A stretch of 64,000 nucleotides of DNA, from the NCBI GenBank assembly GCA_949289265.1, contig CASENE010000042.1, positions 859 to 64,858 of the forward strand. The letters are read 5' to 3'. The notes under the pieces are model-generated. The model did not search any database. It had not been told where the DNA came from and saw nothing but the letters and a program-made list of their open reading frames with translations. This document shows, in pieces, positions 35,372-51,570 of the stretch (its first letter is position 1; each line of letters begins with the position of its first letter). The translations under genes and the position numbers were made by a program. The stretch is from an uncultured Bacteroides sp. Lineage in GTDB: Bacteria > Bacteroidota > Bacteroidia > Bacteroidales > Bacteroidaceae.

Positions 35372-35875
35372 ATGGCTAACAGGTATCGGCTAAAGAAGAA
35401 GTCCAATAAGATAAATGATGAGAAGGATGGGATGTGGCATGCGGAACCTTGCCCGTCTGTGCGGCTGGCGGGACGGGAACTGGCCCGTGAGGTAACCCGG
35501 CATACGACGATGTCTCCGCTGGAGATGGAGATGGCCTTGGGACAGCTGGGCGAGGCCCTGCCCTTCCTGCTGGCGAAGGGATATACTATCGAGCTTCCGG
35601 GGCTGGGCACACTGAGGATGGAGTATGGCAGCGACGGGGTGCAGGAGCCGGAGATGTTCGGGGCGCACCTCATCCGCAGCCCGCGTATCGCCTTCCGCCC
35701 TCTGAGGAAGTTGACGGAGGCCATGCGGGGATTGGCGCGCTTCGAGCCCGGGGGACTGACGGCGGACGGGATGGAGTTTGCGTCGGTGGCGGACTACCGG
35801 AAGTGGCAGGAGCGCACGCGGGGGGCTGACCAGGCCAAAGATGGGGAAATGGCTGGTCAGCGCGACCCGATGTAG
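35372..35875 (+). CDS. Bacteroidales HU/IHF-like DNA-binding protein
   Basis: RYRLKKK, LAREV...TTMS, LAKGYTIELPGLGTLR, RIAFRP. Confidence 0.8.
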   Translation: MANRYRLKKKSNKINDEKDGMWHAEPCPSVRLAGRELAREVTRHTTMSPLEMEMALGQLGEALPFLLAKGYTIELPGLGTLRMEYGSDGVQEPEMFGAHLIRSPRIAFRPLRKLTEAMRGLARFEPGGLTADGMEFASVADYRKWQERTRGADQAKDGEMAGQRDPM

Positions 35876-36753
35876 AGGCAAATCATGCCAAGGAGGACGA
35901 GGAGGAGGTCTACGGCTTTGGAGCGCAGGTTCTTCTCGTGGAAGGCGATGGCGCCAAACAGGAAGGAGACGATGACGCTCCCGCGACGGACCATTGACAC
36001 TACCGAGACCAGGGCGCCGTCTTGACTGAGGGCGAGGAAGTAGGCGTAATCTGCCGCAGAGAGGAACAGGGACACGCCGAGGATGCACCACGTCCACCGG
36101 AAGGGGGACTGCCTGCGACGGGGCCACCAGAGGGCCAAAAGCAGGGGACACATGAGGAGGACTTGGTAGACATTATACCAGGCCTGCACCAGCATGGGGG
36201 GGAACTGCTTCATGAGGTACTTGTCATACAGTCCGGAGAGTGCGCCCAGCAGGGCCGCCAGAATGATGCAGCCTATCCACCGGTTGTGGGCGAAGTCTAT
36301 TCCCTCGCGGCGGCCGCTGCGGCTCAGGAGAAAGAACGATACTATTGCCAGGGTGACGCCGGTCCACTGCCATGGATTGAGCCGCTCGCCGAACAGGAGC
36401 AGGGCGCCCAGCAGTACGAGGACGGGACGGGTGGCGTTGATGGGGCCTACGAGCGTCAGCGGCAGGTGTTTCATGCCCACGTATCCGAAGACCCAGGAGC
36501 CGAGCACAATGAGGGACTTGAGAAGGACGAAACGGTGGACGGCCCATCCGGCCTCGGGGACGTAGAAGCCGGTGCCTTCGAGGAGCGAGGGATTCCAACA
36601 TGAGAGAAGGATGAACGGCAGGAACACGAGGCTGCAGAACACGGTGTTGAGGAACAGCATGGGCAGCACCGCGTTGCCGCTGACGGCTTTCTTCTTGAAG
36701 GCGTCGTAGCAGCCCAGGAGTGCGGCGGAGAGGAAAGACAGGAGTAACCACAT
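35857..36753 (-). CDS. EamA/DMT family transporter
   Basis: MWLLLSFLSA.LLG.YD..KK, KHLPLT, PINATRP, YDKYL, RRGSVIVSF. Confidence 0.88.
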   Translation of the reverse strand: MWLLLSFLSAALLGCYDAFKKKAVSGNAVLPMLFLNTVFCSLVFLPFILLSCWNPSLLEGTGFYVPEAGWAVHRFVLLKSLIVLGSWVFGYVGMKHLPLTLVGPINATRPVLVLLGALLLFGERLNPWQWTGVTLAIVSFFLLSRSGRREGIDFAHNRWIGCIILAALLGALSGLYDKYLMKQFPPMLVQAWYNVYQVLLMCPLLLALWWPRRRQSPFRWTWCILGVSLFLSAADYAYFLALSQDGALVSVVSMVRRGSVIVSFLFGAIAFHEKNLRSKAVDLLLVLLGMICLYIGSR

Positions 36754-36829
36754 GGTCTATACGGGGTTTAAGGGGTTTTCGGGCCGCAAAGTTACGGAAA
36801 ATTCCGGCAGGGTGTGCCCCCTACCCCCT

Positions 36830-38023
36830 TCAGACTTTCAGGCGGACGCGTATCCGGACCAAGAGGCCGGTGACGGCGGTGAGCAGGGCGGCCACGCACA
36901 GGGAGCGCAGCAGTCCCGGCACGCTGGCGCAGACGAGGGCGGGATAGCGAAGCGGCAGGAGCTCGAACAGGGCATACCAGAGGTAGGACAACACGTAGCA
37001 GGTGAGGGTCGCAGTCCCGGCCGGGCGGAGCAGGCGCAGGAGTCCGCCGAAGCCCCGCACGTCGACACAGTAATAGAGCAGGGCGAAGAGCGGCAGGAAG
37101 GCGGACAGGGAATAGAAGAGCCACGTGGGCGTGGCCTGTATCTTGGAGATAATCCAGTGCGGGTGGCAGGCCTCGCCCAGGGCGAACATTACGACTCCCG
37201 TGAGGCAGAGGAGGGCGATGAAGGGGAGCGGGCGACGCGGGTCTGCCAGTCGTTGCATCAGCAGCATCATGGCTACGCCGCTCATCCCCAGGGCATGTAG
37301 TGTCCAGTCGCTCGGGATGAAGGGCAGCAGGAGGAAGCGGAGCGGGGAATCGGCCGGAACGAGGTCTGAGTGGCTGAATAACGAGAGAAGAATCATCACC
37401 GCCCACGCGACGAGCGTGCCCCACAGTCTCTGACCCGCCAGCAGGTAGGCCCCGGCACAGATGGCGTATGTCCACCCGATAAGGCCGAGGATGCCCCACC
37501 AGCCTATGGTCGGCGGCAAGCCGTGGGCGTACCTATATATAATAAGGAATAGGAGCAGCGCGGCGCCCAGCGTCTTCATCGCCCGGAACAGGGTCTGGCG
37601 CCGGCTCTCCCGAGGATATACCCCCCAGACAAGAAAGAATCCGATGACCATCAGGACGAGGAACCAGCCGTGGCTCAGTCCCCCGGGCACGCTGCTGCTG
37701 TTCATGGAGAAGAGTCCCATCAAGACCAGGGCGAGGCTGCGCGCAGACAGGTGAGCGAGTATCTGCCACACCGTGTCGCCGCGGCGGGCGCGCGCCTGTA
37801 TGGCCAGGGGTATGGACAGGCCCATGCAGAAGAGGAAAGCGGGGAATATGAGGTCGGAAAAGCCCATCATGTCTTCGGTTGCTTCGGCGTGCAGCAGCCA
37901 GTGGGGCACGTGACGGAGGCCGGGTATGTCGTTGACAAAGAGCATGAGGAAAAGGGTGAGCGCGCGGAAGGTGTCTACCGACGCGAGCCGACGCGCGGCA
38001 GGGATAGAGGGGGAGGTGGTCAT
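36830..38023 (-). CDS. DUF5009 / HGSNAT-like membrane acyltransferase
   Basis: RLASVDTFRALTLFLMLFVND, DLIFPAFLFCMGLSIP, WWGILGLIG, ISKIQATP. Confidence 0.8.
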   Translation of the reverse strand: MTTSPSIPAARRLASVDTFRALTLFLMLFVNDIPGLRHVPHWLLHAEATEDMMGFSDLIFPAFLFCMGLSIPLAIQARARRGDTVWQILAHLSARSLALVLMGLFSMNSSSVPGGLSHGWFLVLMVIGFFLVWGVYPRESRRQTLFRAMKTLGAALLLFLIIYRYAHGLPPTIGWWGILGLIGWTYAICAGAYLLAGQRLWGTLVAWAVMILLSLFSHSDLVPADSPLRFLLLPFIPSDWTLHALGMSGVAMMLLMQRLADPRRPLPFIALLCLTGVVMFALGEACHPHWIISKIQATPTWLFYSLSAFLPLFALLYYCVDVRGFGGLLRLLRPAGTATLTCYVLSYLWYALFELLPLRYPALVCASVPGLLRSLCVAALLTAVTGLLVRIRVRLKV

Positions 38024-38033
38024 GGAAAACGAA

Positions 38034-38143
38034 GGGTTAGGGATTAGGGGTTAGGGATTAGTGATTAATGGGGAACGAAGATTAATTATATAGGGGTTAG
38101 GGATTAGTGATTAATGGGGTTAGGGGTTAGTGATTAATGGGGG
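38034..38143. repeat. G-rich TTAG(G/T)G heptamer tandem array
   Basis: gggttagggattaggggttagggattagtgattaatgggg, partly duplicated at 38092-38143. Confidence 0.85.
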
Positions 38144-40653
38144 ACGGGTCGGCCTTCCAGCGCGGTGAGGAGGGGGACTATCTCGTAGCCGCGGCGGCGG
38201 AGCTGACGGAGGAGGCGGTCGAGGGGCTTGCCGTAGAACTTGTCGGTGCGGGCGGGGTCTGTGCCGAGGTGGATGAGGAGGAGGTGGCCGTTCAGTCCCT
38301 TGGTCTGCTCGATGCTGAGAACCCGGCGCAGGATGTCGCGGCTGCTGCGATAGGCGGGCATGGAGGGCGTGGTGTAGTCGGCGTTGGTCCCCGTGCCGGG
38401 GGTGAAGTTAATCAGTTGGAGGCCCATGGCTCGTGCCCAGGAGGAGACGAGGCGGTTGTAGTGTTCGTAGGGGGGGATGAAATAGGGTGCGGACTGGGGC
38501 GTGATGCCGAAGGGGCGCATCGTGGCATAGGCTTGGCGGAGGTCGTCTTCAAACTGAGTGCGGGTCACCAGGAGCGAGTCGCGGTCGTCCCACGAAGCGT
38601 AGAGCAGGTGGCCGTCGCTGTGGGTGCTGACGTAGTGTCCCTCGCGGAGGAGGCTGCGCACGACGTCGGGATAGAGGCGGAAGAAACGCCCGGTGAGGAA
38701 GAAGGCGCCTTTCACGCCCTGGCGGCGGAGGGTCTGGAGAATGGCCTGGGCTCCGTCCGCCTTGTCGTCGGCGGTGAAGACGAGGGAGAGCTGGCGGCGC
38801 GAGGGGTTTGTGCGCGTGATGCAGCCTTGGGTGTAGACGTTGGCGTTTTCGCGGCCGGAGCTGCGCATGGACTCGGCTTGGAGGGCGGAGAGGTAATAGG
38901 TCAGGCTGGCTGTCCCGTCCATGGTGGGCTCGTTGGTGGAATAGTCTCCGATGGCGTCGTGATACACCATGAGGCCGCCGTTGAAACGCTCGTAGTCCTG
39001 GCCGGGCACATTGGGAATGCCGGTCATGTTCGCCCCGCGCAGGCTCTCGAAGATAGTCCGGTACACGGGCCCGTCCACCAGGCCTCCCGTCGTGTTGCCC
39101 GCGCTGGCATGGAGCAGCGACGAATGCGGTTGCGAGGGATAGTCGCCATGAAGGGGCAGTTCCACAATCATCGAAGTCCCCCAGGGATTGCAACCCAAGA
39201 GCCAGTCCAGCAACGCGCCTTCCATCTCGCGGTATGTCTCGTCGCCTGTCAGCTCGCGATACAGGCGACACTGCGTCAGCATAGCCACGGTGAGGTTGTT
39301 GGAGCACCAGGTGTATGGGATGCCGTGGAGAAAGGGACTGTCTTGCGCCTTGTCCCAGGTGCGGGCGATGCCGGTGCGCAGGTTGCGGATGAACTCGCGA
39401 CGGACACGGGCGTCTCCTTCCTTCGCCAGCCAGTAATGGCCCAGGTTGAGGAAGGGGTACCACTGGTAATGGCGGGCGCTGTCGGCTCCCATCCAGGGTG
39501 TGACGGGCTCACGACGGCCGTATTCCAGCGCCTCGCCGAGGTAGCGGGCGTCGCCAGTCTGGCGGAAGAGCTCCATCGCGCCCAGTTCCATGTCGTCGGT
39601 CCAGTTGTCTTCTTCGTAGATGTAGGGCGAGAGGACGGAGGCGGTCTGACACACACCCGGATGTTTCTGTCCCTCGGCGTAGGCATCGGCGGCCTTGCGT
39701 CCAATCTCTTCGGCAAATTCGGGATAGAAGTCCTTCAGAATCCGGGATCCCAGGGCGAAACACGAGGCGAACTTCCCTGCCGTACTGGCTACTCCGGTGG
39801 TGGCGTTGCGGAACTTGCCTCGTTGCTGTGGCTCGCCGCTGCAGTAGTATACAGGCCGTCCGTTGCCCGGGCCGTAGCCGTAGTCCACTTGGTCATGGTT
39901 GGGCAGACGCATGCCGGCATGGTCGCGGTCGTCGGCTATCTGATTATACAACTCGCCTTTGGCAGGATTCATGCGGTTCAGCCAGTCCATCCCCCACTTG
40001 ATCTCGTCCACAATGTCGGGGATGCCGTTGGCACCGGGCCGCCCGTCGGCACCATAAGCATCGGCAAACGATTCGGGATTTTGCTGGTAGGCAAACATCA
40101 TCTGATAGATGGCATTGGCCGAGGTGGTCGTATATTGCAGGTAGTCAGTCGCATCGTGCCACCCTCCGCGCACGTCGATATGCTGGCCGGTCTTGGTAGG
40201 ATGATAAACGATGTAGCCGTCGTGCACGTGGCAGCTGTCCTTCAAAAAGGGATTGTAGCCGCAACGCTGCTGCCTCATGTAGTTGAGCAGGAAATCGGCT
40301 GTGCCGTCATACACGCGGCCGTTGATGGGGAAGCTGGGCGAGAGCGCGCCTCCGGCCTTCAGGCGGTACGTGCCCGGGCGGGTGACCGAGCTGAAGTCCA
40401 GGCGGTAGGTGGATTGCATGCCTCCGTAGCTTCCGGTGGACTTGGGCGCGCGGAAGGTCTCCACCACCTGACCGGTGAAATCGTCTATCAGACTAAATTC
40501 GCTCAATTCTTCAGTTTCCTCACTCATAAAGACAGCCACTTTGACCGACTGGGGCAGGTAGCCCAACTGGTTGATACGTATCCATTGGCCGGCCCGAAGC
40601 GCGCCAGTGAGGCAAAGGGCCAGGCAGAGTGAGAAGATTCTTGCTTTTTTCAT
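38134..40653 (-). CDS. Secreted GH9 glycoside hydrolase fused to a C-terminal NodB/CE4 deacetylase domain
   Basis: Signal peptide; WIRINQLGY, GGWHDATDYLQY, YSTNEPTMDGTA (GH9); FTADD, HSDGH, PPYE, LLIH (CE4). Confidence 0.88.
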   Translation of the reverse strand: MKKARIFSLCLALCLTGALRAGQWIRINQLGYLPQSVKVAVFMSEETEELSEFSLIDDFTGQVVETFRAPKSTGSYGGMQSTYRLDFSSVTRPGTYRLKAGGALSPSFPINGRVYDGTADFLLNYMRQQRCGYNPFLKDSCHVHDGYIVYHPTKTGQHIDVRGGWHDATDYLQYTTTSANAIYQMMFAYQQNPESFADAYGADGRPGANGIPDIVDEIKWGMDWLNRMNPAKGELYNQIADDRDHAGMRLPNHDQVDYGYGPGNGRPVYYCSGEPQQRGKFRNATTGVASTAGKFASCFALGSRILKDFYPEFAEEIGRKAADAYAEGQKHPGVCQTASVLSPYIYEEDNWTDDMELGAMELFRQTGDARYLGEALEYGRREPVTPWMGADSARHYQWYPFLNLGHYWLAKEGDARVRREFIRNLRTGIARTWDKAQDSPFLHGIPYTWCSNNLTVAMLTQCRLYRELTGDETYREMEGALLDWLLGCNPWGTSMIVELPLHGDYPSQPHSSLLHASAGNTTGGLVDGPVYRTIFESLRGANMTGIPNVPGQDYERFNGGLMVYHDAIGDYSTNEPTMDGTASLTYYLSALQAESMRSSGRENANVYTQGCITRTNPSRRQLSLVFTADDKADGAQAILQTLRRQGVKGAFFLTGRFFRLYPDVVRSLLREGHYVSTHSDGHLLYASWDDRDSLLVTRTQFEDDLRQAYATMRPFGITPQSAPYFIPPYEHYNRLVSSWARAMGLQLINFTPGTGTNADYTTPSMPAYRSSRDILRRVLSIEQTKGLNGHLLLIHLGTDPARTDKFYGKPLDRLLRQLRRRGYEIVPLLTALEGRPVPH

Positions 40654-40666
40654 ATCGTATTATGTG

Positions 40667-41905
40667 TTATTTTTGTTTGAGTTCGTCTGTTTCTGCGTCG
40701 CATCCTGTGCCGCACACGTCCGGGGACAGGCTTTTCCGGCACATCCTGCCTTCCACGAAGGTGGCCTGCATCTCGAACCGGGGCGTGAACAAGATGACGT
40801 CCGCATCCTTTCCGGCTGCTAAAGTACCTTTTTTTTCTGCAATTCCCATGAGGCGGGCCGGAGTTTCTGCTGCCATTCTCATCACGTCCGCCAGCGGGAT
40901 TTCCGCCTGCTCGGCCATGACGCGTATCAAGCGGATGCCCGTGGCTATGCTGCCGGCCAGGGCCGAGCGGTCGGCAAGCTTGCACACGCCGTCTTCCACC
41001 ACCAGGCCCTCGCCCAGGACGCGGGCATAGTCGCCCTCGCAGGCAGCCGCGGCGATGGCATCGGTCACCAGCGCGGTCTGCTCCGGCCCCTTTATCTGAT
41101 AGACCAGGCGCAGGATGGGGGGAGGCACGTGTATGCCGTCCGCGATGACCTCCACGCTCAGGCCGCGCATCAGGTAGACGGCCTCCACGGTGCCTTCGTG
41201 CTTGAACTCGCGCTCCTTGTGCACCGAGGTCATGGCGTTGTAGAAGTGGGTGACGTGACTGAAGCCGGCGCGGCAGGCCTCTTTCAGCTGGGCATAGCCG
41301 GCCGTGGTGTGGGCCAGCGACACCAGCACGCCGCGCGCGGACGCATAGCGGGCAAACTCGCAGGCGCCCGGCAGTTCGGGAGAGGCGCTCCAACGCTTGA
41401 TGCACGTGGTGTCGGACAGTAGGGCTTCGTATTCCTCCGGGTCGGGCGCGTGCAGGAAGGCGCCGTCCAGCCCGCCCTTCATGGCCGGATTGATGTAGTT
41501 TCCCTCCAGGTGGAGCCCCAAGATGGCGGCGCCCTGCCCCGCGGGATGGCTCATCGCGTGCTCGCAGCAGCGGATGGCCTGCCGGAAGACCTGCCCGTCG
41601 GCCGCGGCCACCGTGGGACAGAGGGCGGTGACGCCGCACAGGGCGTGCGCCTGCGCGATGCGGCGGAAGGCTTCGGGCGTGGCTTCCGAAAAGTCGTGCC
41701 CTCCCCCGCCGTGCACGTGCAGGTCGATGCACCCGGGGGCCACATACCCGCCCCCGGCATCGACCACCTGCGCCTGGGGGATGTCCACGTTGGCGCGCCC
41801 CACTTCGGCTATCCGGCCGTTGCGGATGACCACTTGTCCGTCTTTGATGATGCCCGAGGGCGTCACCACCCGGCCATTGATGATTTTATACAGGATGTCT
41901 GCCAT
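40667..41905 (-). CDS. nagA: N-acetylglucosamine-6-phosphate deacetylase
   Basis: PGCIDLHVHGGGG, GLHLEGNYIN, AHT.A, THFYNAM, IADGIH, LVTDA, LAGS. Confidence 0.92.
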   Translation of the reverse strand: MADILYKIINGRVVTPSGIIKDGQVVIRNGRIAEVGRANVDIPQAQVVDAGGGYVAPGCIDLHVHGGGGHDFSEATPEAFRRIAQAHALCGVTALCPTVAAADGQVFRQAIRCCEHAMSHPAGQGAAILGLHLEGNYINPAMKGGLDGAFLHAPDPEEYEALLSDTTCIKRWSASPELPGACEFARYASARGVLVSLAHTTAGYAQLKEACRAGFSHVTHFYNAMTSVHKEREFKHEGTVEAVYLMRGLSVEVIADGIHVPPPILRLVYQIKGPEQTALVTDAIAAAACEGDYARVLGEGLVVEDGVCKLADRSALAGSIATGIRLIRVMAEQAEIPLADVMRMAAETPARLMGIAEKKGTLAAGKDADVILFTPRFEMQATFVEGRMCRKSLSPDVCGTGCDAETDELKQK

Positions 41906-42002
41906 AGCTGTGTCTGATGATGATGATTGTCTGATGCCGGACTTCGCGCCGGCCCGTTCTGTTTACGAATATATCCTCTAACTGCCTGCCTTTCAGCGTC
42001 CG

Positions 42003-42090
42003 GCAGCGTTATAATCCCCGGCCGGTGGAAGTATAGTTCCCAGTCGGTGGGAGTATAGCCCCCGGTCGGTGGAGATATAGCCCCACCGGC
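42003..42090. repeat. 22-bp tandem array, 4 units
   Basis: gcagcgttataatccccggccg / gtggaagtatagttcccagtcg / gtgggagtatagcccccggtcg / gtggagatatagccccaccggc. Confidence 0.75.
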
Positions 42091-42121
42091 CGGGGATGCT
42101 TAGGGACGAAAAGCCGAAGGG

Positions 42122-43015
42122 TCAGTCCACTGCCTCGAAGAAGGCTATCCACGCATCGTCTTCCCATTCCACGCCTCCTTCAAACTTGCGGGGCACTGCC
42201 AGGGTGAGGTGCTGCTCGTCCAACTCCAGTATCCAGTACGTCCCCCCGTTGTCCAGGTTCACCTCGTTGAACTCGAAGCCGATGACGGGCACCGTCAGCA
42301 GCAGTTCGCCGATGACGCCTGTGTCGGGCGTGCTGTGCACGAAGTTGTATTCGCCCTCGTTGTTCAGCGAGCCGTCCGGATGGAACGTCCGGAAGGCGTT
42401 CTGGTCGAAGGCGAACTCCATCGTCTGGTTGCCGGCCGTCTCCAGCGAGGTCTGCCCCCACCAGGCATTTCCGGTCACCTGGTCGACCGGCGTATAGTTC
42501 CAGAAGCCGTAGGCGCCGTTGTAGCACACCACGTCTTCGCACGCGCGGAATCGCCAGGTCTTCCGGGCTCCTTTGTCGGATTTGTCCTTGGCGCCTGTCA
42601 GGCAGGTAGACCAGGCGTCGAAAACGTTGGTCACGGTCAGCTCGACGGGCGTGCTCCGCACGCTCTTTCCCTGCGAGATGGTTTCAAAATACACCGTCCA
42701 GACGCCGTTGCCCGTGCAGACAAGGGTGTCGTGGTCGCTTCCGGAGCGCAGTTCCAGTTCTCCCTTCCTGACGTGCCAGCAGCCGGCGATGGCCGGATTC
42801 GAGTTTCTGACCACGACGTACTGGTCGCCCTCCACGGCGTCTTCCGTGTTGGGGAAAGGTTGGGTTACTGTCACCACGGCGTCCAGGTCGGCCTGCGTGA
42901 CGGGCGTTTCTGCAGCAAAAGCCTCGCGCAAGTCTTCGTCTTCAATAGGGTCGCAAGCCAGCATCGCGCCTACGATGCTGCACAACAATACGGGCCAATA
43001 TCTTACTTTCTTCAT
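42122..43015 (-). CDS. PUL surface lipoprotein (candidate glycan-binding protein)
   Basis: Lipobox MLA-C then acidic DPIEDED; directly downstream of susD; Trp-rich. Confidence 0.75.
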   Translation of the reverse strand: MKKVRYWPVLLCSIVGAMLACDPIEDEDLREAFAAETPVTQADLDAVVTVTQPFPNTEDAVEGDQYVVVRNSNPAIAGCWHVRKGELELRSGSDHDTLVCTGNGVWTVYFETISQGKSVRSTPVELTVTNVFDAWSTCLTGAKDKSDKGARKTWRFRACEDVVCYNGAYGFWNYTPVDQVTGNAWWGQTSLETAGNQTMEFAFDQNAFRTFHPDGSLNNEGEYNFVHSTPDTGVIGELLLTVPVIGFEFNEVNLDNGGTYWILELDEQHLTLAVPRKFEGGVEWEDDAWIAFFEAVD

Positions 43016-43045
43016 GATTCGTCGGTTATAAAATGGTTATCGTAC

Positions 43046-44839
43046 TTACAGGTTGTTCCAATCGGTAAACTGCGCCGAGGGTTCCCATCCGGGATTCTGC
43101 TCGATGACGCCGTTTGTCAGGTCGACCTCGGTCTGCGGGATGGGCCAATAGCCTTGGGTCTCCTGCAGGCGTTTCTTGTAGTCGAACTGCACCATCGGCT
43201 TCACCTCGGCTGCATTGATGACGTCGAAACCGGCCTGCTTGTTCAGCAAGTCGCCGGCCTCTTCCAGGCTCGGGCCCGACCAGCGGAGCATGTCCCACCA
43301 GCGGATGGCCTCGAAACAGAGTTCCCAACGCCGCTCGTTCTTGATGGCCTCCAGCGAATAGGCCACCGGAGCCAGGTGCGAGCGCGCACGCACGCGGTTC
43401 AGCCCCTCGGCGTCTTCCTTCAGCTCGGACTGCATCAGGAGCACGTCGGCAAAACGGATGTGTATCAAATCGGCTATCTGCAACAGCTGCTGGCTGGTCT
43501 GCGTCGTGATGCCCGGATAGAGCACCTTGCCGAAGGCTTCGATATTGCCGCTCGCGTTGCAGGCATTGATGTTGATGTACTTCTTCTGGTGGTAGCCGGT
43601 CTGCTCGTAGTAGCGGTAAGAGACCGTATAGGTGGGTTCGCTCTCGTCCAGCGAGCAGTCCATCAGAACGTTCCCCTCGTTGTTGGGATCCAGCGCCTTG
43701 TACGACCAGACGGAACCTGTGAGGCGGGGGTCTTCGGTAAACCCGTCGGTGAAGGTCTGCTTGGCGCTCCAGTCCTGCCACTCGCTAATCATGGCCGGCG
43801 ACACGGGGCCTGCGCCCCAACCGGTGCCGAAGGGATAGCTCTCCACCTGGTCGTAGTTGTCGGCCGAGGGAGAGAAGAACTGGGCGCACGTGTTCGACCA
43901 CCACGTGTATGTCCAGTTGCTCTTCAGGTTGTGCTTGTTGGCGAAAAGCGTCTCCACGCTGCTGTTGCCCACCCACTTCAGGCCGTTGTCGATGACATAC
44001 TGGTAGCGCAGGTCGCGCGCGTTTTCCTCCGTCGTCTGGTTGGTATAGGCCCACAAGTTGCGCTGGTCGTCCACCAGGTCGTGACCGGAGTTATACACGC
44101 AGTCGTCAATCCACCCGATGACGTCGTCCTTGCTGGTGCCGTCGGGCAAGGCGTCCTGGGCATAACGCCCCGTATAGAAGAGGAATACCCGGGCCATCAG
44201 GGCTTCGGCCGCATACTTCGTGGCATGTCCGGCCAGGCTCGACCCTTCGGTATAGATCTGTGCGGGCATCAGGCCGATGGCCTGCCTCAGGTCGGAAGCT
44301 ATCTGGGCATAGACCTCGTCCACGCTGGCACGCGGCAGCGTGTTGGTGCTCATGGCCTCCGTGCGCAAAGGCACTCCGCCGAACACCTGGACCAACTCAT
44401 AGTAGGCCATGGCCCGCAAGAAATGGGCTTCGCCCATCAGCCTGTCGCGCTCGGCCTGGGCAGACCAGGAGGCCACGTTGTCTATGTTCGAGATGGCGCT
44501 GTTGGCCCGGTTGATCAGTTTGTAGCATCTGCTCCACAGCCCGGACAGGCCGTTCAGGTTGTCTTTATACATCAGGAAGTTGGTGGCGCAGTTGTTGGAA
44601 TACGACAGGTTCCCGCCCAGGCAGTCGTCGCTGGCCAGCTGGGCTATGAAGAAACTGGACGAAGTCTCCGGACTCTCGAACAACAACTGCGAATAAATGG
44701 CCGTCACCATCTCCTGCGCCTCTGTTTCCGTGGCGGGGAAGTTCTCGGTCGTCTTGTTGGTCAGCAGGTCGCTGTCCAAAAAGCTCTCGCAACCGGCACA
44801 GAGCCATGCCAGCGCCAAGCCTATCAATATCTTTTTCAT
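43046..44839 (-). CDS. SusD/RagB family lipoprotein
   Basis: Lipobox CAG-C; GEAHFLRAMAYYELV..FGGVP, KYAAEALMARVFL, IRFADVLLM..E, ERRWELCFEA.RWWD, PIPQTE. Confidence 0.95.
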   Translation of the reverse strand: MKKILIGLALAWLCAGCESFLDSDLLTNKTTENFPATETEAQEMVTAIYSQLLFESPETSSSFFIAQLASDDCLGGNLSYSNNCATNFLMYKDNLNGLSGLWSRCYKLINRANSAISNIDNVASWSAQAERDRLMGEAHFLRAMAYYELVQVFGGVPLRTEAMSTNTLPRASVDEVYAQIASDLRQAIGLMPAQIYTEGSSLAGHATKYAAEALMARVFLFYTGRYAQDALPDGTSKDDVIGWIDDCVYNSGHDLVDDQRNLWAYTNQTTEENARDLRYQYVIDNGLKWVGNSSVETLFANKHNLKSNWTYTWWSNTCAQFFSPSADNYDQVESYPFGTGWGAGPVSPAMISEWQDWSAKQTFTDGFTEDPRLTGSVWSYKALDPNNEGNVLMDCSLDESEPTYTVSYRYYEQTGYHQKKYININACNASGNIEAFGKVLYPGITTQTSQQLLQIADLIHIRFADVLLMQSELKEDAEGLNRVRARSHLAPVAYSLEAIKNERRWELCFEAIRWWDMLRWSGPSLEEAGDLLNKQAGFDVINAAEVKPMVQFDYKKRLQETQGYWPIPQTEVDLTNGVIEQNPGWEPSAQFTDWNNL

Positions 44840-44851
44840 TGTACTCTTGTT

Positions 44852-47800
44852 TTAGAATTTAACGTTTAATCCAACCATGTAAGTGCGCGCGCTCGGATAG
44901 AATCCCAGGTCGATGCCAGAAGACCAGGAATAGCTGTCGCCGCTATAGCCGATTTCCGGGTCCATGCCCGAATAGCCGGTAAAGGTAAACACGTTCTGAG
45001 CGGTAAAATACAGGCGCAACTGCTGCATGGGCAACTGCTTGAAGAACTTCTTGAAGTCTACCCCGACGGTGATGTTCTTAATCTTCAGGTAATCGCCGTT
45101 CTCGATGTAGATATCCGATATCTTGTTCCAGTTCGTGCTGGAGGCGCTGGATATCCGGGGAAACTTGTTGCTGGTGCCCTCTCCGTGCCAACGCTCGAAG
45201 ATATCCGTGGTATAGTTGTTCAGCGGCGAGCTGACGAAATCGCGGTAACACTTCAGAATCTGATGGCCGAAGGCGCCGTAGGTCGTGATGGCAACGTCGA
45301 ACGCCTTCCAGCTGGCATTCAGCGAGAACCCCATCGTAAAGTCCGGGTGGGGATTGCCTATCTCGGTACGGTCGTTCTCGTCTATCTTGTTGTCATGATT
45401 GATGTCGCACCAAATCACGTCGCCGGGCTGCGTGGCATCGCCGTTGACCTTGACGCCTTGATAGTTGTCTATCTGCTCTTGGGTCTGGAAAATGCCCTGG
45501 CTCTTGTAGCCGTAGAAGAAGCCGATGGGTTTCCCCACCTCGGCCCGGAAACATTCGTCGGCGCCTTCCCACAGGATGCTGCCGTTCCCGTGCAGGATGC
45601 CGTCGCTGTTTTCAATCTTGGTCACCTTGTTCTTGTTGTAAGCCAGGTTCAGGTTGGCCCCGTAACTAAAGTCCTCCCCCACCTGGTCGTTCCAATGGAA
45701 GGCAGCCTCAAAGCCCGTGTTCTTGATGGCGCCCCCGTTGATGGAGCAGGCGTCGGCGCCAAAGTTCATCTGCACAGGCGCCGTCACCAGCCAGTCTTTG
45801 GTCGTCTTCCGATACCAGTCCAGTTCCACTCCCAGCCGGTAGTCAAAAAAGCGGGCGTCCACACCGATATCAATCGTTTCCTGGGTCTCCCACGTCAGGT
45901 CTTTGTTTATCAGCTGGTAGGCATACGAGCCGGTGTGCACCGTGTCCATCAGGTCGCCGAAGGTATAGCCTCCATACGTGGTGTTCGAGGTCACTTTCGA
46001 CAGATATTGGAACGGGCTGATCGAGCAGTTGCCGTTCTGTCCCCACGAAGCACGAAGTTTCAAGAAGTTCAGCCATTTGCCCACATGCTGCATGAAGCGT
46101 TCGTTGCTAACCACCCATCCGGCAGACAGCGAAGGGAAGTAACCCCAGCGATGGCCGCGGGCAAAGTTGGAAGACCCGTCGGCACGCATCACCACGGAAG
46201 CCATGTACTTTTCCTTGAAATTATAGTTCACGCGCCCAAAGAACGAAGCTATGGCTCCTTCGGTATTGGGAGAACCGCCCAGGGAACTGATATTGGCATT
46301 CACGAAAGGCACGTTGGACAGGTAGGCATGCTCGAAGTCGTAGAAACTCGAGTTGTAAGCAGACGCATTCATGGACAGGCCAAAGCCCCACTTCTCCAGG
46401 CTCTGCCCCACCAACACATCCAAATGGTGTTCCTTCACATCAAACAAGTAGTTCACCGTGTTCTCCCACGACCAGCGGTGCGACTCGCTCATCGACTGCG
46501 TCACCTGGTCTTTCTCCTGCTGCAGGCTTTCCGTCAGTTTCTCATACCGTGGGACATAACTCCTATAGCTGCTGTGCGACATGATGTAGCCGAACTGGCT
46601 TTTGATGCGAAGGTCTTTGATGGGCTGCAGTTCGGCATAGAAGCTGCTCTGCATGTAATGTCCGGCGCTCTCATTCTGATTCATCATGTAGTCCAGGTAG
46701 GCTATCGGGTTCTTATTGGCGCCGTTGGACACGTCCCACTTATACCCGTCTCTCACCTGGTCTGCATACAGGTAATAGCTGCCGTCGCTATTGTAAGCGG
46801 GCATCAGCGGACTCATGATCAACATGTTATGCACTCCGTTCCAATAGATGCCGCCCGTGCCGAACGAACCGTCCGTCTGTTGATACTTATAATTGATGGT
46901 TTCGCCCACCTTCAAGAAGTCCAGGCCATTCTTCCGGATGACCACATGGTCGGAATTGATGCGCGCATTATAACGTCTCGTATCCGGCGCCTCGTTCGGC
47001 ACGCCCATCGTAGCCTCCTGATAGGTATAAGAACCGCCTATCGAATAGCGCGAACGCTCGGTGCCGCCCGTGATGTTGACCGAATGGTTCTGCACCAGCG
47101 CGTTCTTATTCAGGATTTTCTTCAACCAGTTCGTGCCTTGCCAGGAGCCGTCTTCTATGGCCTGTAACGAAGCCTCGGGGATATAAGTCCCCCAGTCCCA
47201 CGGCGCCAGGCCATCCATAATCCGCCCTTCGTCCTGAATGGCCATGTATTCCTGGGCGGTCAGCACCGCAGGAATCTTATACAGGTTCTGCCAGCCCACA
47301 TATCCGTCATACGTGATTTCGGAAACGCCGGCCTTGCCTTTCTTGGTCGTTATCAATACGACACCATTGGCAGCACGAGCTCCATAGATAGCGGCAGAAG
47401 CAGCATCCTTCAGGATGTCGACCGACTCGATGTCATTCGGGTTCAAGCCATCCAAGCTACCATTGGCCACCCCGTCGATGACAAACAAAGGAGAAGAATC
47501 GCCGTTCGTGCCCAGGCCTCGGATGGTCATCTTATAGCCCGAATTCAGGAAGCCGCTGTTCTGCACCAGATTCACCCCCGGGGCCTGGCTTTGCAACGCC
47601 TCCAACGGGTTCACTGTGTTCAGCTTGGCAATGTTCTCGCCTTTCACCTGGACCGTAGCGCCCGTTATCAGTTTCTTCTTTTGGACTCCATAGCCCACGA
47701 CCACCACCTCGTCAAGCATTTCATTGTTTTCTTCCAGAACAATCTCCATGTCCGACGATGCTTTGACTTCTTGAGTCACGTATCCCACATAAGAAATGAC

Positions 47801-48088
47801 CAAGACGGCGTCTGCGTGCACATTCAGCACAAACTCTCCCGTCAAGTCAGTAATGATGCCGTTGGAAGTTCCCTTCTCCCATACGCTGGCTCCAATCACC
47901 GGCTCACCATCCGACGTGAGCACTTTTCCCTTCACCTTCAGCAGAGAAACCTGGCCCACCCGGCAAACCATGTTTTCATCAGAAACGTCCACACCTGATG
48001 CCTTTGCACAGACAAAGGCAAAAGATAATAGAATAATAGTTGTGAGGATTCTGAACAGATGTTTTCCTCGTTTGTGATTTTCAGGCAT
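44852..48088 (-). CDS. SusC/RagA family TonB-dependent transporter
   Basis: GEPVIGASV, EVVVVGYG, PLFVIDG, ILKDAASAAIYGARAANGV.ITTKKG, RADGSSNF, WET, DPE, YPSARTY..G.NVKF; ATG at 48088. Confidence 0.96.
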   Translation of the reverse strand: MPENHKRGKHLFRILTTIILLSFAFVCAKASGVDVSDENMVCRVGQVSLLKVKGKVLTSDGEPVIGASVWEKGTSNGIITDLTGEFVLNVHADAVLVISYVGYVTQEVKASSDMEIVLEENNEMLDEVVVVGYGVQKKKLITGATVQVKGENIAKLNTVNPLEALQSQAPGVNLVQNSGFLNSGYKMTIRGLGTNGDSSPLFVIDGVANGSLDGLNPNDIESVDILKDAASAAIYGARAANGVVLITTKKGKAGVSEITYDGYVGWQNLYKIPAVLTAQEYMAIQDEGRIMDGLAPWDWGTYIPEASLQAIEDGSWQGTNWLKKILNKNALVQNHSVNITGGTERSRYSIGGSYTYQEATMGVPNEAPDTRRYNARINSDHVVIRKNGLDFLKVGETINYKYQQTDGSFGTGGIYWNGVHNMLIMSPLMPAYNSDGSYYLYADQVRDGYKWDVSNGANKNPIAYLDYMMNQNESAGHYMQSSFYAELQPIKDLRIKSQFGYIMSHSSYRSYVPRYEKLTESLQQEKDQVTQSMSESHRWSWENTVNYLFDVKEHHLDVLVGQSLEKWGFGLSMNASAYNSSFYDFEHAYLSNVPFVNANISSLGGSPNTEGAIASFFGRVNYNFKEKYMASVVMRADGSSNFARGHRWGYFPSLSAGWVVSNERFMQHVGKWLNFLKLRASWGQNGNCSISPFQYLSKVTSNTTYGGYTFGDLMDTVHTGSYAYQLINKDLTWETQETIDIGVDARFFDYRLGVELDWYRKTTKDWLVTAPVQMNFGADACSINGGAIKNTGFEAAFHWNDQVGEDFSYGANLNLAYNKNKVTKIENSDGILHGNGSILWEGADECFRAEVGKPIGFFYGYKSQGIFQTQEQIDNYQGVKVNGDATQPGDVIWCDINHDNKIDENDRTEIGNPHPDFTMGFSLNASWKAFDVAITTYGAFGHQILKCYRDFVSSPLNNYTTDIFERWHGEGTSNKFPRISSASSTNWNKISDIYIENGDYLKIKNITVGVDFKKFFKQLPMQQLRLYFTAQNVFTFTGYSGMDPEIGYSGDSYSWSSGIDLGFYPSARTYMVGLNVKF

Positions 48089-48283
48089 AAATAAAAACTT
48101 AATGTTAAACAAATCAATAAGAGAACAGAAAAAAAACAATTACCGAATACGGTTACGAACCATGCACACTTGCCTTTCCCGCATTATCGACCTCTCAGAG
48201 GGGCTCGCCACGGCCGCACTACAAGGCCGGGCGAACCGCTCTACGTTCCAAAGAAAGAACTTATCTATATAGAACTAATACCT

Positions 48284-49045
48284 CTACAGGTTTTTCACCC
48301 TACGCTGATATTCCGCAATGGCAGCATCCAGGCGTTCGTGGGCAGTGGTATCTCCCGGCACATTGTGCGACGGGTGGATATAGAGGTGCACGCCACGCTC
48401 CGCCAGAATTTCGGCCACGGTGGTGATGGTCATCCATACCATGGTGACAAAACTCAGCGTCGACAGGGGGCCGACCTTGTCGAAATGGTTCTTCAAAGGA
48501 ACCGAGGCGTCTACCAAAGGAACACAAGAGTCGACAACGATGTCGGCAATCTGGAACAGGTTCTTTCCTCCCGAATGGCGGCTGGGCTTATCGCCCGTTT
48601 CGCCGGCAGAGCCATAGACAATGACCTTCATCCCCCTCTTTTTGGCCTCCAACGCCACGTCGATATTGACGGCATTGATGCCCGTATGCGAGAATAGCCA
48701 GAGGCAATCCTTGGAATCAAAATCATAGTTCTTCATGATTTCGACGCCATAGCCTTCGGCCCGCTCCAGGAACAGGAACTGATGAATGCCCATCTGACCA
48801 ATAATCTGCGTGAAGAAGGTCAAAGGCAATTCGCACAGCGGATGAAACCCGACAAAACTTCCGATGCGGGGATACATTTCCTCAACGGGAATCGTGGCGT
48901 GTCCGCAGCCGAAGGTATGCACCCAACGGCCGGCTTCAATCGAATCCGCCATCACCGTGGCCGCCTTCCTAATGTTTTCCAACTGGGTAGCTTCCAGCTT
49001 CTCCATAATGCCATGGGCATTCTTTAACCATTCTAATGCTAACAT
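48284..49045 (-). CDS. UPF0309-like single-SIS-domain sugar-phosphate enzyme (resembles NagS)
   Basis: FGCGH, YPR, LERAEG, FSHTG.N, SRHSGG, DIVVDS..PLVDA, GP.ST, SHNVPG. Confidence 0.82.
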   Translation of the reverse strand: MLALEWLKNAHGIMEKLEATQLENIRKAATVMADSIEAGRWVHTFGCGHATIPVEEMYPRIGSFVGFHPLCELPLTFFTQIIGQMGIHQFLFLERAEGYGVEIMKNYDFDSKDCLWLFSHTGINAVNIDVALEAKKRGMKVIVYGSAGETGDKPSRHSGGKNLFQIADIVVDSCVPLVDASVPLKNHFDKVGPLSTLSFVTMVWMTITTVAEILAERGVHLYIHPSHNVPGDTTAHERLDAAIAEYQRRVKNL

Positions 49046-49065
49046 ACTGCTTTGATTTTAAAAGA

Positions 49066-50223
49066 TTAATTATGAGGTTTGAGTGAACGTCTATACATCA
49101 AGAACATGGCCACCAGCGAGCCCATCATCAGATAAGGGTAGGCGCAGATCCCGCTTTCATGATGAGACAACAGCCCCATCAGCGCATTCATCGCCGTCTG
49201 CCCCACCAGAGCGATGGCAAGCGCTATGCTAAAAGCAGTGCCCGAGAAGTCGGGATACCTGTTCCCGATGATGCTCAGGACGACAGGATAAGTAGAAGAC
49301 AGACCGGCGCCTATCAGCACCATCCCCACGGCAGCCCTGACGAAGCCGGGAGAAAAAGTCAGCAGGCAAAAGCCCAGCCCGCATACCAACAGGCTATATG
49401 GCAAGACGGATGTGGGATTGACCTTCTTGAACAAGACGACCTGAAGCAAACGGGCCGCGCTCATGGCAGCCACCATGCAGGTCAGTGCCAACAACGAATG
49501 TTCCAACGAGATGTCCGTCGTCCGGCCGAAGTAACTGGTCGTCCAGTTGTTGCACACGCCTTCTATGCCGCTCTGGAAAAACAAGATGAAACACAGCAGC
49601 ACAAAGCTCCCCTTCAAAATGCGCAGGCCGTCTTTGATAGGAAAATGCTGCGCCTGCTTAGGGGCCGGAAACCGCACGAAGAAGCAATAGAGTATGGCGA
49701 CAAGCATCAAGGCGCCTATCCCGTTCAAGATAACCTCGAAAGAGAAATACCGCAACAACGAAGCCAGCAACACAGGTATGCACAAGGCACCAACGCCATA
49801 GAAAACGCCCAACAAGCTGAGCAGAGAGCCTCGCTCCGACTCTTGGGAGATGTCTACCACCAAGGCATTGGTCTCGCCGTTCAGGGCTCCGCCGCCAAAG
49901 CCTACAGCCACAATGGAAATCTGCAACAAATGGATGTTGCTAAAGAAACTGATTCCCTCCAGGCCCAGCAGAATAACGATGCAACCCGGCAGCAAGACCG
50001 CCTTATGGCCATAATGGTCCACGAAGGGGCCAAACACCAGCGACCCCAGCAGCACGCCTATCGGCAGGAACGTCACCAACGACGTGGCCTGCAACGGGCT
50101 GAGTCCGTATTTCTCGGTCAACGACGGCAAGACAGACCCCAGCACTATCATCGAAACGCCGAAAAAGCACATTCCGATGCAGGCAGCAACAAAAACCTTC
50201 CTTTTCTTATATCTATTTTCCAT
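49066..50223 (-). CDS. MFS sugar transporter
   Basis: About 12 TM helices; GPFVDHYGHK loop, FFQSGIEG, LSSTYP. Confidence 0.88.
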   Translation of the reverse strand: MENRYKKRKVFVAACIGMCFFGVSMIVLGSVLPSLTEKYGLSPLQATSLVTFLPIGVLLGSLVFGPFVDHYGHKAVLLPGCIVILLGLEGISFFSNIHLLQISIVAVGFGGGALNGETNALVVDISQESERGSLLSLLGVFYGVGALCIPVLLASLLRYFSFEVILNGIGALMLVAILYCFFVRFPAPKQAQHFPIKDGLRILKGSFVLLCFILFFQSGIEGVCNNWTTSYFGRTTDISLEHSLLALTCMVAAMSAARLLQVVLFKKVNPTSVLPYSLLVCGLGFCLLTFSPGFVRAAVGMVLIGAGLSSTYPVVLSIIGNRYPDFSGTAFSIALAIALVGQTAMNALMGLLSHHESGICAYPYLMMGSLVAMFLMYRRSLKPHN

Positions 50224-51175
50224 GTTCCCGATTTTTAACGACCAAATAAGCTGCCCCTATCAGGCCCGCGTTGCCCGACAACTGCGAGGGCAGGAACTGC
50301 ACCTGCTTGATAGCCAAAGGCTGAGCCCACTTGCAGGCCTCCTGATAGATATCATGGATAAAGATATGAGCCGGGCCAAACACTCCGCCGCCCCAGATGA
50401 TTTTCTGGGGGTTTATCAGGCTCACGATATTGGCCGAAGCCATGCCCCACATCTCTACCGCCTGCTTCAACACGGCGACGGCTATGGGGTCGCGTTCCTC
50501 GTAAGCCTGGAAGACGTCATGCGCCGTAATCCGCGAGATGGGCTTCTGCCGGAGCTTGCCCCTGTATGTCTTGTCGCGGCGCACGGCATCGCGGGCTCTG
50601 GCTCCTATCCCGTTGCCCGAGGCATAATATTCAAAGCAACCGCATTCGTCATAGGCTTCCGTATAAGGAGGCTTCAGCGCCATCCAACCGGTGGCCCCGA
50701 TGATGTCGCTGGCACCATGCAACACACGCCCGTCGATGATAATCCCCGCGCCGATGCCCGTGCCCACCGCCACGAACACGGCGCTGTGGCAATCCCGAGC
50801 CGCCCCCTGCCACATCTCGCCATACATGAAGCACGCCCTGTCGCTCTCGATGAAGATGCCGATGTCTTTCGGAGTCACCATCCGTAACTCTTCGTAAAGC
50901 GGATAATTCTCCCAACCGGGAATGTTAGGAGCCCACACCCTGTTGGTCTGAGAGAAGACAATGCCCGGAATGCACACGCCCACGCCTTCTATGGGAATGC
51001 GTTTCTTCTGGGCCACATCCAGCAGTTTGGCAAGCACCTCCATCGCGAGCTTTCCCACTTCGTGCCCGGTTCTGCCCTGCAACAAGCGTCTCCGGATGCA
51101 CATCATTTCTCCGTCCGAAAGGAAAATAGCACTGGCTATCTTTGTTCCGCCTATGTCTAGCGTGATTACTGCCAT
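50213..51175 (-). CDS. ROK family sugar kinase (no HTH)
   Basis: N-terminal LDIGGTKI, GVCIPG, VAVGTGIGAGII, GCFEYYASG, GGGV, NAGLIGAA. Confidence 0.88.
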   Translation of the reverse strand: MAVITLDIGGTKIASAIFLSDGEMMCIRRRLLQGRTGHEVGKLAMEVLAKLLDVAQKKRIPIEGVGVCIPGIVFSQTNRVWAPNIPGWENYPLYEELRMVTPKDIGIFIESDRACFMYGEMWQGAARDCHSAVFVAVGTGIGAGIIIDGRVLHGASDIIGATGWMALKPPYTEAYDECGCFEYYASGNGIGARARDAVRRDKTYRGKLRQKPISRITAHDVFQAYEERDPIAVAVLKQAVEMWGMASANIVSLINPQKIIWGGGVFGPAHIFIHDIYQEACKWAQPLAIKQVQFLPSQLSGNAGLIGAAYLVVKNREHGK

Positions 51176-51570
51176 GTCGATAGGTTTGAATGGGTATTAC
51201 ATAAAAGGTTCTGTGCGAAGTTAGCCGTTTCGGCCTGTAACGCCAATCCATTCACCCTCTATTTATGGCCAAATAATGCAACGATTCACTAATTTTTGTT
51301 TAAGAACATACAGTTCAGGGGTCAGCGAAAGAATAACGACAGATGTTAATCAAGCAATTAAACATATATTAAGCCACCTAAAACGGCGTTCCATTTATGT
51401 TTATTAACAAACAGAGGTTCCGGTCAGGACAACAGAAGTAAAGGACAATACCGGTTTATGTCAAGACACTTGCGGGCAAAGCCAACCTTCCCCTGCCGCC
51501 AGAATGCCGCCGCACCGCCGGTCAAGGCTACGCCTGCAAGGCCTGCAAGCAGGCCTCACGAATGGTTAGA

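Follow-up and report, generated by a model that had tools for sequence, protein, structure and literature searches.

What does a protein of the UPF0309 family do in a Bacteroides genome, when NagS, the one relative of it that has been characterised, was reported in 2025 to be confined to Streptomycetaceae? The question is raised by ten co-oriented genes on the minus strand of a 64,000-nucleotide stretch of DNA, called here the window (contig CASENE010000042.1 of assembly GCA_949289265.1, positions 859 to 64,858), from an uncultured Bacteroides sp. represented by a Bacteroidaceae metagenome-assembled genome of 3.0 Mb and 56% GC. They encode, in order, an atypical ROK-family sugar kinase, a carrier of the major facilitator superfamily (MFS), the UPF0309 protein with its single SIS domain (hereafter the SIS protein), a SusC/SusD pair, a surface lipoprotein, a NagA paralog, a GH9-CE4 fusion, a DUF5009 membrane protein and an EamA transporter. 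Our analysis suggests that this is probably a polysaccharide utilization locus (PUL) for oligomers of the glucosamine (GlcN) and N-acetylglucosamine (GlcNAc) type, coupled with a cytoplasmic cassette of wide occurrence. As the reaction of the SIS protein itself we tentatively favour, at somewhat less than an even chance, the isomerisation/deamination of a hexosamine-6-phosphate after deacetylation, the SIS protein acting with an amidohydrolase. An initial annotation of the window, made from its letters alone, had listed the same genes, and all ten open reading frames exist on the minus strand with families upheld by Pfam and NCBIfam. It had taken the SIS protein for a dehydratase of N-acetylglucosamine 6-phosphate (GlcNAc-6P) like NagS, and this part of its reading fared less well.

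The SIS protein and its relation to NagS

The sequence and the predicted structure of the SIS protein (48284..49045, minus strand) establish it as a member of the NagS/UPF0309 structural family. It scores 221.7 bits over residues 3-252 against NF002805 (PRK02947), the model of the UPF0309 family, for which NCBIfam has a curated cut-off of 135 bits. Searches of Pfam and NCBIfam gave a single SIS_2 domain, not a two-SIS architecture, and no match to the MurQ (TIGR00274) or GlmS families, in agreement with the initial annotation, which had called the protein UPF0309-like rather than GlmS- or MurQ-like. Matches by phmmer include BH3325 (3cvj, 8.9e-22) and NagS (9eol, 6.7e-20). The annotation had also proposed superposing an AlphaFold model on NagS and MurQ. 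By Foldseek, an AlphaFold2 model (pLDDT 89.5) has template modelling (TM) scores of 0.88/0.90 to NagS 9eol, with a root-mean-square deviation (rmsd) of 2.2 Å, and of 0.87/0.91 to BH3325 3cvj (rmsds 2.1-2.2 Å for the two). The next-best structures were MurQ and GmhA, with TM scores of about 0.5-0.6 (0.55-0.59 for MurQ, against 0.88 for NagS).

SCO4393/NagS of Streptomyces coelicolor dehydrates GlcNAc-6P and acts with NagA, which removes the acetyl group from the product; the initial annotation was correct on this enzyme, and the authors of its description place NagS near MurQ (PMC12680351). The residues that the annotation gave as its active site are real, and they align with NagS (SIS protein/NagS: H49/H53, R60/R64, E94/E94, D179/D179, N228/N228, SRH/SRH and SHNVPG/SGNVDG), but they are not diagnostic of it. 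We aligned 68 full-length family representatives, taken from 50%-identity clusters after an exhaustive HMMER search, and found the His, Arg, Glu, S119 and Asp near-invariant across UPF0309 (63-69 of the 71 sequences counted). The conservation of His, Arg, Glu and Asp throughout the family implies that they mark family membership, not dehydratase function. Together with S119, they make up a common catalytic core of the fold that does not discriminate for a dehydratase.

Positions that contact the substrate in NagS are altered in the SIS protein (S54 to A50, A65 to I61, S91 to L91, G227 to H227), as are two positions of the phosphate loop (S121 to T, R123 to I). In NagS, kcat/Km falls 17-fold with the mutation S54A and 40-fold with S91A; its orthologs are at least 58.7% identical, occur in Streptomycetaceae only and are syntenic with dmdR1; and three homologs from outside that family, 25.7-35.7% identical to NagS, had no or negligible activity (PMC12680351). 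The SIS protein is 25.4% identical to NagS (27% to BH3325), comes from a Bacteroidaceae host and has MFS and SusC genes as neighbours rather than dmdR1, which sets it outside the NagS orthologs. The low identity, the altered substrate contacts and the published inactive homologs at a similar distance make a NagS-type reaction on GlcNAc-6P unlikely, and we do not favour the dehydratase proposed initially. The Bacteroidales SIS clade has invariant residues of its own (C47, H88, H120, H224 and H227), and its phosphate loop reads SHTGIN where NagS and BH3325 have S(L/N)SGRN, with loss of the Arg.

The kinase-carrier-SIS triad and its amidohydrolase partner

The SIS protein has more than 5,000 homologs in databases, and those of Bacteroidales are 75-97% identical to it. 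We surveyed 80 loci from species-representative Bacteroidales genomes, clustering the flanking open reading frames without bias, and found a contiguous ROK-MFS-SIS triad in about 70 of them. Across these loci the kinase (48-81% identity) and the carrier (33-67%) are far more divergent than the SIS protein. The triad stands alone in B. intestinalis. Elsewhere a recurrent order follows the SIS gene: a creatininase-family gene, then GH9, often CE4 and sometimes DUF5009. In at least 11 loci, whose labels name several different families, the triad is followed by GH9 with or without CE4, and orthologous sets of SusC, SusD and lipoprotein are present in seven loci, with lipoprotein homologs 37-41% identical. 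One genome of another family has the order GHL10-SusC-SusD-ROK-MFS-SIS-creatininase-GH20 chitobiase-GH9-CE4-DUF5009, plus a second HGSNAT_cat gene. The synteny of SIS, nagA, ROK and MFS genes that the initial annotation had suggested surveying is thus conserved for the triad, whereas NagA lies beside it only in the window's lineage. A block of a different kind, pncB-pncA-ROK-MFS-SIS-Porin_10-SLT transglycosylase-FtsX, with NAD-salvage genes directly before the kinase, is found in nine loci (L033, L037, L039, L046, L049, L050, L055, L062 and L068), between about 5.3 and 14 kb of each locus, all of one lineage labelled Muribaculaceae/Rikenellaceae, and may reflect shared ancestry rather than shared function.

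The creatininase-family (PF02633) amidohydrolase gene directly follows the SIS gene in at least 16 of the 80 loci, in genomes labelled Bacteroidaceae, Dysgonomonas, Rikenellaceae/Alistipes, Prevotellaceae and Proteiniphilum. One such partner (L053:5666-6430) matches PDB 3lub, a 'putative creatinine amidohydrolase', at 7.6e-99; the structure of 3lub is solved, and we found no function assigned to it. Among 200 genomes drawn evenly from the order, a true UPF0309 gene was present in five and absent from the sampled genome of the same genus and from B. thetaiotaomicron. All five carriers have a creatininase-family gene, against 24 of the 200 genomes (hypergeometric 1.7e-5, a value that ignores phylogeny). 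No creatininase homolog was found in the host genome of the window. This genome has three NagA genes, two in tandem on another contig (C28:45331-47661) and about 50% identical to the locus copy, which itself sits where other lineages carry the creatininase-family amidohydrolase. Because creatininase accompanies the SIS gene in all five carriers and the locus of the creatininase-less host includes a third NagA, we surmise that the SIS enzyme depends on an amidohydrolase as partner, a place that the NagA paralog seems to fill here. The functional tie between the SIS protein and an amidohydrolase, which the initial annotation had drawn with NagA, is therefore supported by adjacency and by this co-occurrence.

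Three of the five SIS carriers have no NagA at all, which fits a route independent of canonical NagA. NagA was absent from all 25 control genomes of the order and from the sampled genome of the same genus; NagB was common. We looked for simple replacements and found none. Creatininase does not replace NagA by anticorrelation, since NagA is present in 7 of the 24 creatininase carriers (and absent from 17) against none of the 25 controls, and the host has NagA without creatininase. Creatininase and CE4 are not mutually exclusive deacetylases either, as both occur together in at least six loci. Canonical NagB scores above its cut-off in the host genome and in three of the five other carriers, and canonical MurQ is encoded elsewhere in the host genome (contig C76). 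The SIS protein thus does not simply take the place of an absent NagB or MurQ.

The first gene of the triad encodes the kinase (50213..51175, minus strand; Pfam ROK PF00480, 165.5 bits). Its ROK domain spans residues 4-313 and leaves no room for a helix-turn-helix domain, as the initial annotation had stated. The protein keeps DxGGT and GTGIG, but GATGW replaces ExGH and SDR is found where other ROKs have NDAN. The zinc motif CxCGxxGCxE is lost: only one of the three zinc cysteines aligns with those of the glucokinases 2qm1, 3vov and 3vgk. Both hallmarks of canonical ROK sugar kinases, ExGH and the zinc motif, are thus missing. This atypical signature is kept in 113 orthologs and in the ROKs beside distant SIS homologs, so the SIS protein and this ROK subtype have co-evolved as a pair. 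Among NCBIfam models, NanK gives sizeable matches that are far under their cut-offs and weaker than the match to the glucokinase family. We considered whether the kinase is related to the ROK kinases, encoded by B. uniformis and B. caccae genes, that improved growth on D-glucosamine in the Boba-seq screen; neither species is among the closest ROK or SIS homologs, and it is probably a different ROK. The second gene, which overlaps the first by 11 nt, encodes the MFS inner-membrane transporter (49066..50223, minus strand; Pfam MFS_1, 138.3 bits), for which the top full-length NCBIfam match is TsgA, far under its cut-off.

The pairing extends beyond close relatives: SIS homologs that are only 37-46% identical also pair with a ROK of the same atypical type. 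Neighbours of these distant pairs include a GH42/GH35-like enzyme with a weak GLMA_2nd match and an SGSH-type sulfatase, which would free unsubstituted GlcN. Two further homologs lie in operons of other kinds, each of which once more links an SIS gene with an amide hydrolase. One of them, 36% identical (L090:8001-15265), is in an operon of SIS, SDR, FAD oxidoreductase, PTE, an aldolase for 2-keto-3-deoxy-6-phosphogluconate (KDPG), a NagA-like amidohydrolase, cupin and DeoC, which resembles an oxidative route for amino sugars with a 2-keto-3-deoxy acid as its end product. The other, 38% identical (L104:5247-15950), has a setting very unlike the Bacteroidales loci: its neighbours are a GntR/UTRA regulator, a second SIS_2 paralog with an SDR, a kinase of the FGGY family, an ABC transporter for sugars, an FAD oxidoreductase and a creatininase-family gene.

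The genes of the window and the route they suggest

Downstream of the triad, on the same strand, lie a SusC/RagA TonB-dependent outer-membrane transporter (44852..48139; TIGR04056, 886.7 bits), an adjacent SusD-family outer-membrane lipoprotein (43046..44839; Pfam SusD-like_3 and SusD_RagB) and a surface lipoprotein of 297 residues (42122..43015; lipobox LAC followed by D) that matched no Pfam or NCBIfam family and is a candidate glycan-binding protein. They are followed by the NagA paralog, of the GlcNAc-6P deacetylase family (40667..41905; TIGR00221, 269.9 bits, over cut-off), and by a secreted fusion of CelD_N, GH9 and CE4 domains with a signal peptide (38134..40653; Pfam). The adjacent SusC/SusD pair with a carbohydrate-active enzyme gene downstream on the same strand identifies a Sus-like locus. 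In the GH9 domain (Pfam, 233 bits) the catalytic residues are kept (WHDATD with D167 and D170; NE575), and so are the metal triad and catalytic residues of CE4 (ADD 628-630, HSDGH 678-682, LLIH 795), where RxPY is altered to IPPY. The nearest structures to GH9 are endoglucanases (3x17, 1.3e-36 over 21-533; also BoGH9A), and the best NCBIfam matches of CE4 are the peptidoglycan deacetylases PdaB and PdaA. The fusion is thus a candidate beta-1,4-glycanase, conceivably a glucosaminidase or chitosanase, combined with a polysaccharide deacetylase, with a substrate suggested by its context only.

The DUF5009 protein (36830..38023, minus strand; PF16401, 40.2 bits) is an HGSNAT-like membrane protein and a NagX-like candidate glucosamine N-acetyltransferase. 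It matches human HGSNAT (8vkj) at 1.8e-10 over residues 266-367, the region of the catalytic His297; phmmer sets its WLLHA opposite WYFKH297A of HGSNAT, one residue out of register, and its Pfam match is to DUF5009, not HGSNAT_cat. NagX proteins act in glucosamine use, as judged by mutant fitness in five bacteria, mostly with NagA and with NagP or another carrier; they were proposed to acetylate periplasmic GlcN and are distantly related to TfMurT, a transporter of N-acetylmuramic acid (Price et al. 2022, PMC9007349). The same route was adopted for B. thetaiotaomicron by Huang et al. 2024. This published glucosamine route accounts for the DUF5009, MFS, ROK and NagA proteins of our locus.

Taken together, these genes would act on beta-1,4-linked oligomers of GlcN and GlcNAc, such as chitosan or partly deacetylated chitin. 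SusC/SusD and the lipoprotein would capture and import the oligomers, which the secreted GH9-CE4 enzyme would deacetylate and cleave to GlcN. The NagX-like protein may re-acetylate GlcN in the periplasm, the MFS carrier would import the monosaccharide and the atypical ROK would phosphorylate it. The amidohydrolase (the third NagA here, the creatininase-family enzyme in other lineages) and the SIS protein would then finish the conversion. For this, the SIS protein may use the C2-deprotonation machinery shared by its family, with His, Arg, Glu and Asp at the dimer interface, to turn hexosamine-6-phosphate into fructose-6-phosphate and ammonia. Gene identities, family membership, conserved synteny and co-occurrence are what the data show; the substrates of every step and the SIS reaction are our inference. 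Our preference for a deaminase arises because it completes a set of carrier, kinase, deacetylase and deaminase and mirrors the deacetylate-first chitin routes that end in an SIS-type deaminase, and because it fits the carriers without NagA and the contexts that liberate GlcN.

Several observations weigh against this reading. The catalytic domain of GH9 is not close to the characterised GH9 exo-beta-D-glucosaminidases, since its matches to the Photobacterium and Vibrio enzymes (5dgq, 3.9e-9; 3h7l, 1.9e-7) cover residues 27-243 only. Deacetylation by CE4 and re-acetylation by NagX in one compartment look opposed, a seeming opposition for which the NagX route also accounts. NagS itself does not bind glucosamine 6-phosphate (GlcN-6P). 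The canonical NagB of the host and of most other carriers makes an additional deaminase look redundant, and in one carrier (G146) genes for all four, NagA, NagB, creatininase and SIS, coexist. In E. coli, classical NagB is activated by GlcNAc-6P, and the redundancy could be explained if the classical enzyme needs this activator here as well. Finally, the ROK co-evolves with the SIS protein and has a rebuilt sugar site, which may mean that the substrate is not simply GlcN or GlcNAc.

The limits of the locus are those given by the initial annotation, which had noted the lack of a regulator gene: none flanks it, with truA upstream (51571-52335) and a convergent HU-HIG domain gene downstream (35372-35875, plus strand) that overlaps the 3' end of the EamA gene by 19 nt. 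From ROK to EamA, the intergenic gaps are -11, 20, 144, 12, 30, 216, 13, 110 and 76 nt. An AT-rich spacer of 395 nt between truA and the ROK gene (51176..51570) is the probable promoter region of the cassette. We found no strict Bacteroides -7 box (TAnnTTTG) upstream of ROK or SusC, and scanning the locus for promoters and terminators gave nothing informative. The EamA/DMT transporter at the other end (35857..36753, minus strand; Pfam EamA) is a doubtful member of the system. It had been proposed to export a modified metabolite, an idea left unsupported by the survey, in which EamA is next to the module in none of the 80 related loci.

The locus looks compositionally mosaic. GC content at third codon positions (GC3) is 0.67-0.71 in the ROK, MFS, SIS and SusC genes (44852-51175) against 0.80-0.84 from SusD to EamA (35857-44839); the neighbouring genes truA and DUF5715 have a GC3 of about 0.9. 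The lower GC3, together with the 95-97% identity of the SIS protein to Bacteroides proteins, suggests that the cassette may be a more recent arrival from a lower-GC Bacteroides. Weighing on this idea, the host is itself a member of Bacteroidaceae, its adenylate kinase clustering at 90% identity with 'Candidatus Bacteroides intestinavium', and the ROK and MFS proteins are only 78% and 64% identical, respectively.

Competing explanations and known systems

The main competitor of the deaminase is that the kinase, carrier, SIS protein and amidohydrolase handle a non-canonical amino sugar, the SIS protein being a beta-eliminase, etherase or hydratase of the NagS/MurQ type and the amidohydrolase acting on its product or substrate. 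We regard this as possible but distinctly doubtful. Candidate substrates would be N-acetylglucosaminate-6-phosphate, converted to KDPG, a 3-O-substituted or 2,3-dehydro hexosamine, and muramic acid or its delta-lactam, opened by a lactam-hydrolase-like partner. Such a substrate would explain why the SIS protein and a dedicated amidohydrolase are kept in genomes with NagA and NagB, with a third NagA near the SIS gene here, and why, in every SIS-linked ROK, ExGH is gone along with the zinc site and the catalytic Asp is followed by an Arg, although the role of this Arg is read from the sequence. NagS binds linear 6-phosphogluconate tightly (PMC12680351). In the same direction point the FAD oxidoreductase operons of the distant homologs (one with SDR, PTE, KDPG aldolase and amidohydrolase, the other with FGGY kinase, ABC transporter and creatininase), the PdaB/PdaA matches of CE4 and the distant relationship of NagX to TfMurT. 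Yet no oxidoreductase, lactonase or aldolase is found in or near the Bacteroidales loci, the recurrent GH9, CE4, GH20 chitobiase and NagX yield plain GlcN or GlcNAc, and the genome has its canonical MurQ. The more specific version, an undescribed catabolic route of NagS-type beta-elimination followed by amide hydrolysis, for example from N-acetylglucosaminate-6-phosphate to KDPG, or from spore-cortex muramic delta-lactam or muramic acid to GlcN-6P and lactate, is slightly less probable still. If true, NagS, the 'toxicity' enzyme of Streptomyces, would have branched off from a catabolic eliminase family widespread in gut Bacteroidales.

Other explanations are more remote. That the SIS protein is a true NagS, making 6-phosphochromogen I from GlcNAc-6P for the adjacent NagA to deacetylate, as initially proposed, could be argued from the shared fold, the five aligned residues essential in NagS and the NagA paralog of the locus, given that NagS and then NagA act in Streptomyces. 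It becomes improbable once these residues are seen to be near-invariant family-wide, the identity to fall at the level of the inactive homologs, and A50, L91, I61 and H227 to occupy substrate contacts, the former two at the S54A and S91A positions. In Streptomyces, moreover, what NagS produces is toxic and is not known to enter any catabolic route (PMC12680351), and the dmdR1 synteny is absent here. We give a similarly low chance to a C2 epimerase, analogous to NanE, that would convert N-acetylmannosamine 6-phosphate to GlcNAc-6P, with the ROK as N-acetylmannosamine (ManNAc) kinase, the MFS protein as ManNAc carrier, the amidohydrolase yielding GlcN-6P and NagB finishing the route. This scheme would share the C2-deprotonated intermediate, as we read it, uses every gene without redundancy, requires a NagB that most carriers have, and agrees with the sizeable NanK matches of the ROK. 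But those matches are weak beside that to the glucokinase family, the triad has no recurrent neighbour that encodes a sialate lyase or would otherwise produce ManNAc, and the neighbours indicate polymers of GlcN and GlcNAc. Least probable, and very much so, is the chance juxtaposition of a ROK-MFS-SIS cassette with an unrelated PUL whose GH9-CE4 enzyme attacks an acetylated plant or microbial beta-glucan. The endoglucanase and BoGH9A relatives of GH9, the GC3 split between SusC and SusD and the solitary triad of B. intestinalis would suit it, but GH9 follows the triad in so many loci of several family labels, and again in the other-family genome with GH20 chitobiase and NagX, and the genes of the PUL are interspersed with those for NagA and NagX.

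Both the architecture of the PUL and the NagX route are familiar from earlier work. For the ROK-MFS-UPF0309 cassette, its amidohydrolase partner and the zinc-less ROK subtype, we found no publication, in line with the initial annotation, which knew of no such route in gut Bacteroidales; searches on UPF0309, on GH9/CE4 chitosan PULs in Bacteroidales and on creatininase-type sugar deacetylases returned nothing relevant. Many Bacteroidales of the gut, and of termite guts, have the cassette, among them B. intestinalis, B. oleiciplenus, Dysgonomonas, Muribaculaceae, Alistipes and Prevotellaceae, and its SIS protein is unusually conserved, with no published function that we could find. Solving the reaction would give a role to a large family that lacks annotation, and possibly also to the creatininase-family partner represented by 3lub. 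It would make clearer how glycans of the chitosan or glucosamine type, whether from fungi, insects or bacteria, are used by gut Bacteroidales, and reveal what the NagS fold does chemically beyond Streptomyces. Testing is practical because the triad is found in B. intestinalis strains that are in culture.

How does the system compare with those already described? Among SIS proteins, NagS (PDB 9eol, 9f7o and 9f7v) has the same UPF0309/SIS_2 fold, the same H/R/E/D/N228 set and a functional link to an amidohydrolase; our protein differs in being 25% identical and in lying away from dmdR1, in a catabolic operon of kinase and transporter genes joined to a PUL. BH3325 of Bacillus halodurans, deposited as a putative phosphoheptose isomerase, is as close as NagS and comes from another phylum; we found no published function for it. 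MurQ, the etherase that acts on N-acetylmuramic acid 6-phosphate, works by C2-deprotonation and beta-elimination, and belongs to the SIS superfamily too, at the much lower structural similarity given above.

Among pathways, the deacetylate-first chitin route of Thermococcus proceeds through Dac, GlmA, a GlcN kinase and the SIS-type deaminase GlmD, and that of Vibrio through a chitin oligosaccharide deacetylase (COD), a GH9 glucosaminidase and a GlcN kinase. Our locus resembles them in combining a deacetylase, an exo-glucosaminidase, a GlcN kinase and an SIS-type deaminase, if our assignments hold, and a distant SIS-ROK pair lies beside a GlmA-like GH42/35 enzyme. The proteins are not orthologous, however: GlmD/NagB-II consists of two GlmS-type SIS domains, and GH9 is only remotely similar. 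The chitin PUL of Flavobacterium johnsoniae (ChiUL) has a GlcN-6P deaminase gene, NagB, inside the PUL (PMC5127042). Like our locus, it is a SusC/SusD PUL for a GlcNAc polymer with a cytoplasmic hexosamine-phosphate enzyme inside, but it has GH18 chitinases, GH20 and the classical NagB, whereas the locus studied here is without GH18 and has GH9-CE4, NagX and UPF0309 instead. The NagX-NagP-NagK-NagA route has putative counterparts here in NagA, in the MFS carrier, in the ROK as sugar kinase and in a membrane protein resembling HGSNAT. The present system departs from it by its atypical ROK, by the addition of the UPF0309 SIS protein and of GH9-CE4, and, in other lineages, by the exchange of NagA for a creatininase-family enzyme.

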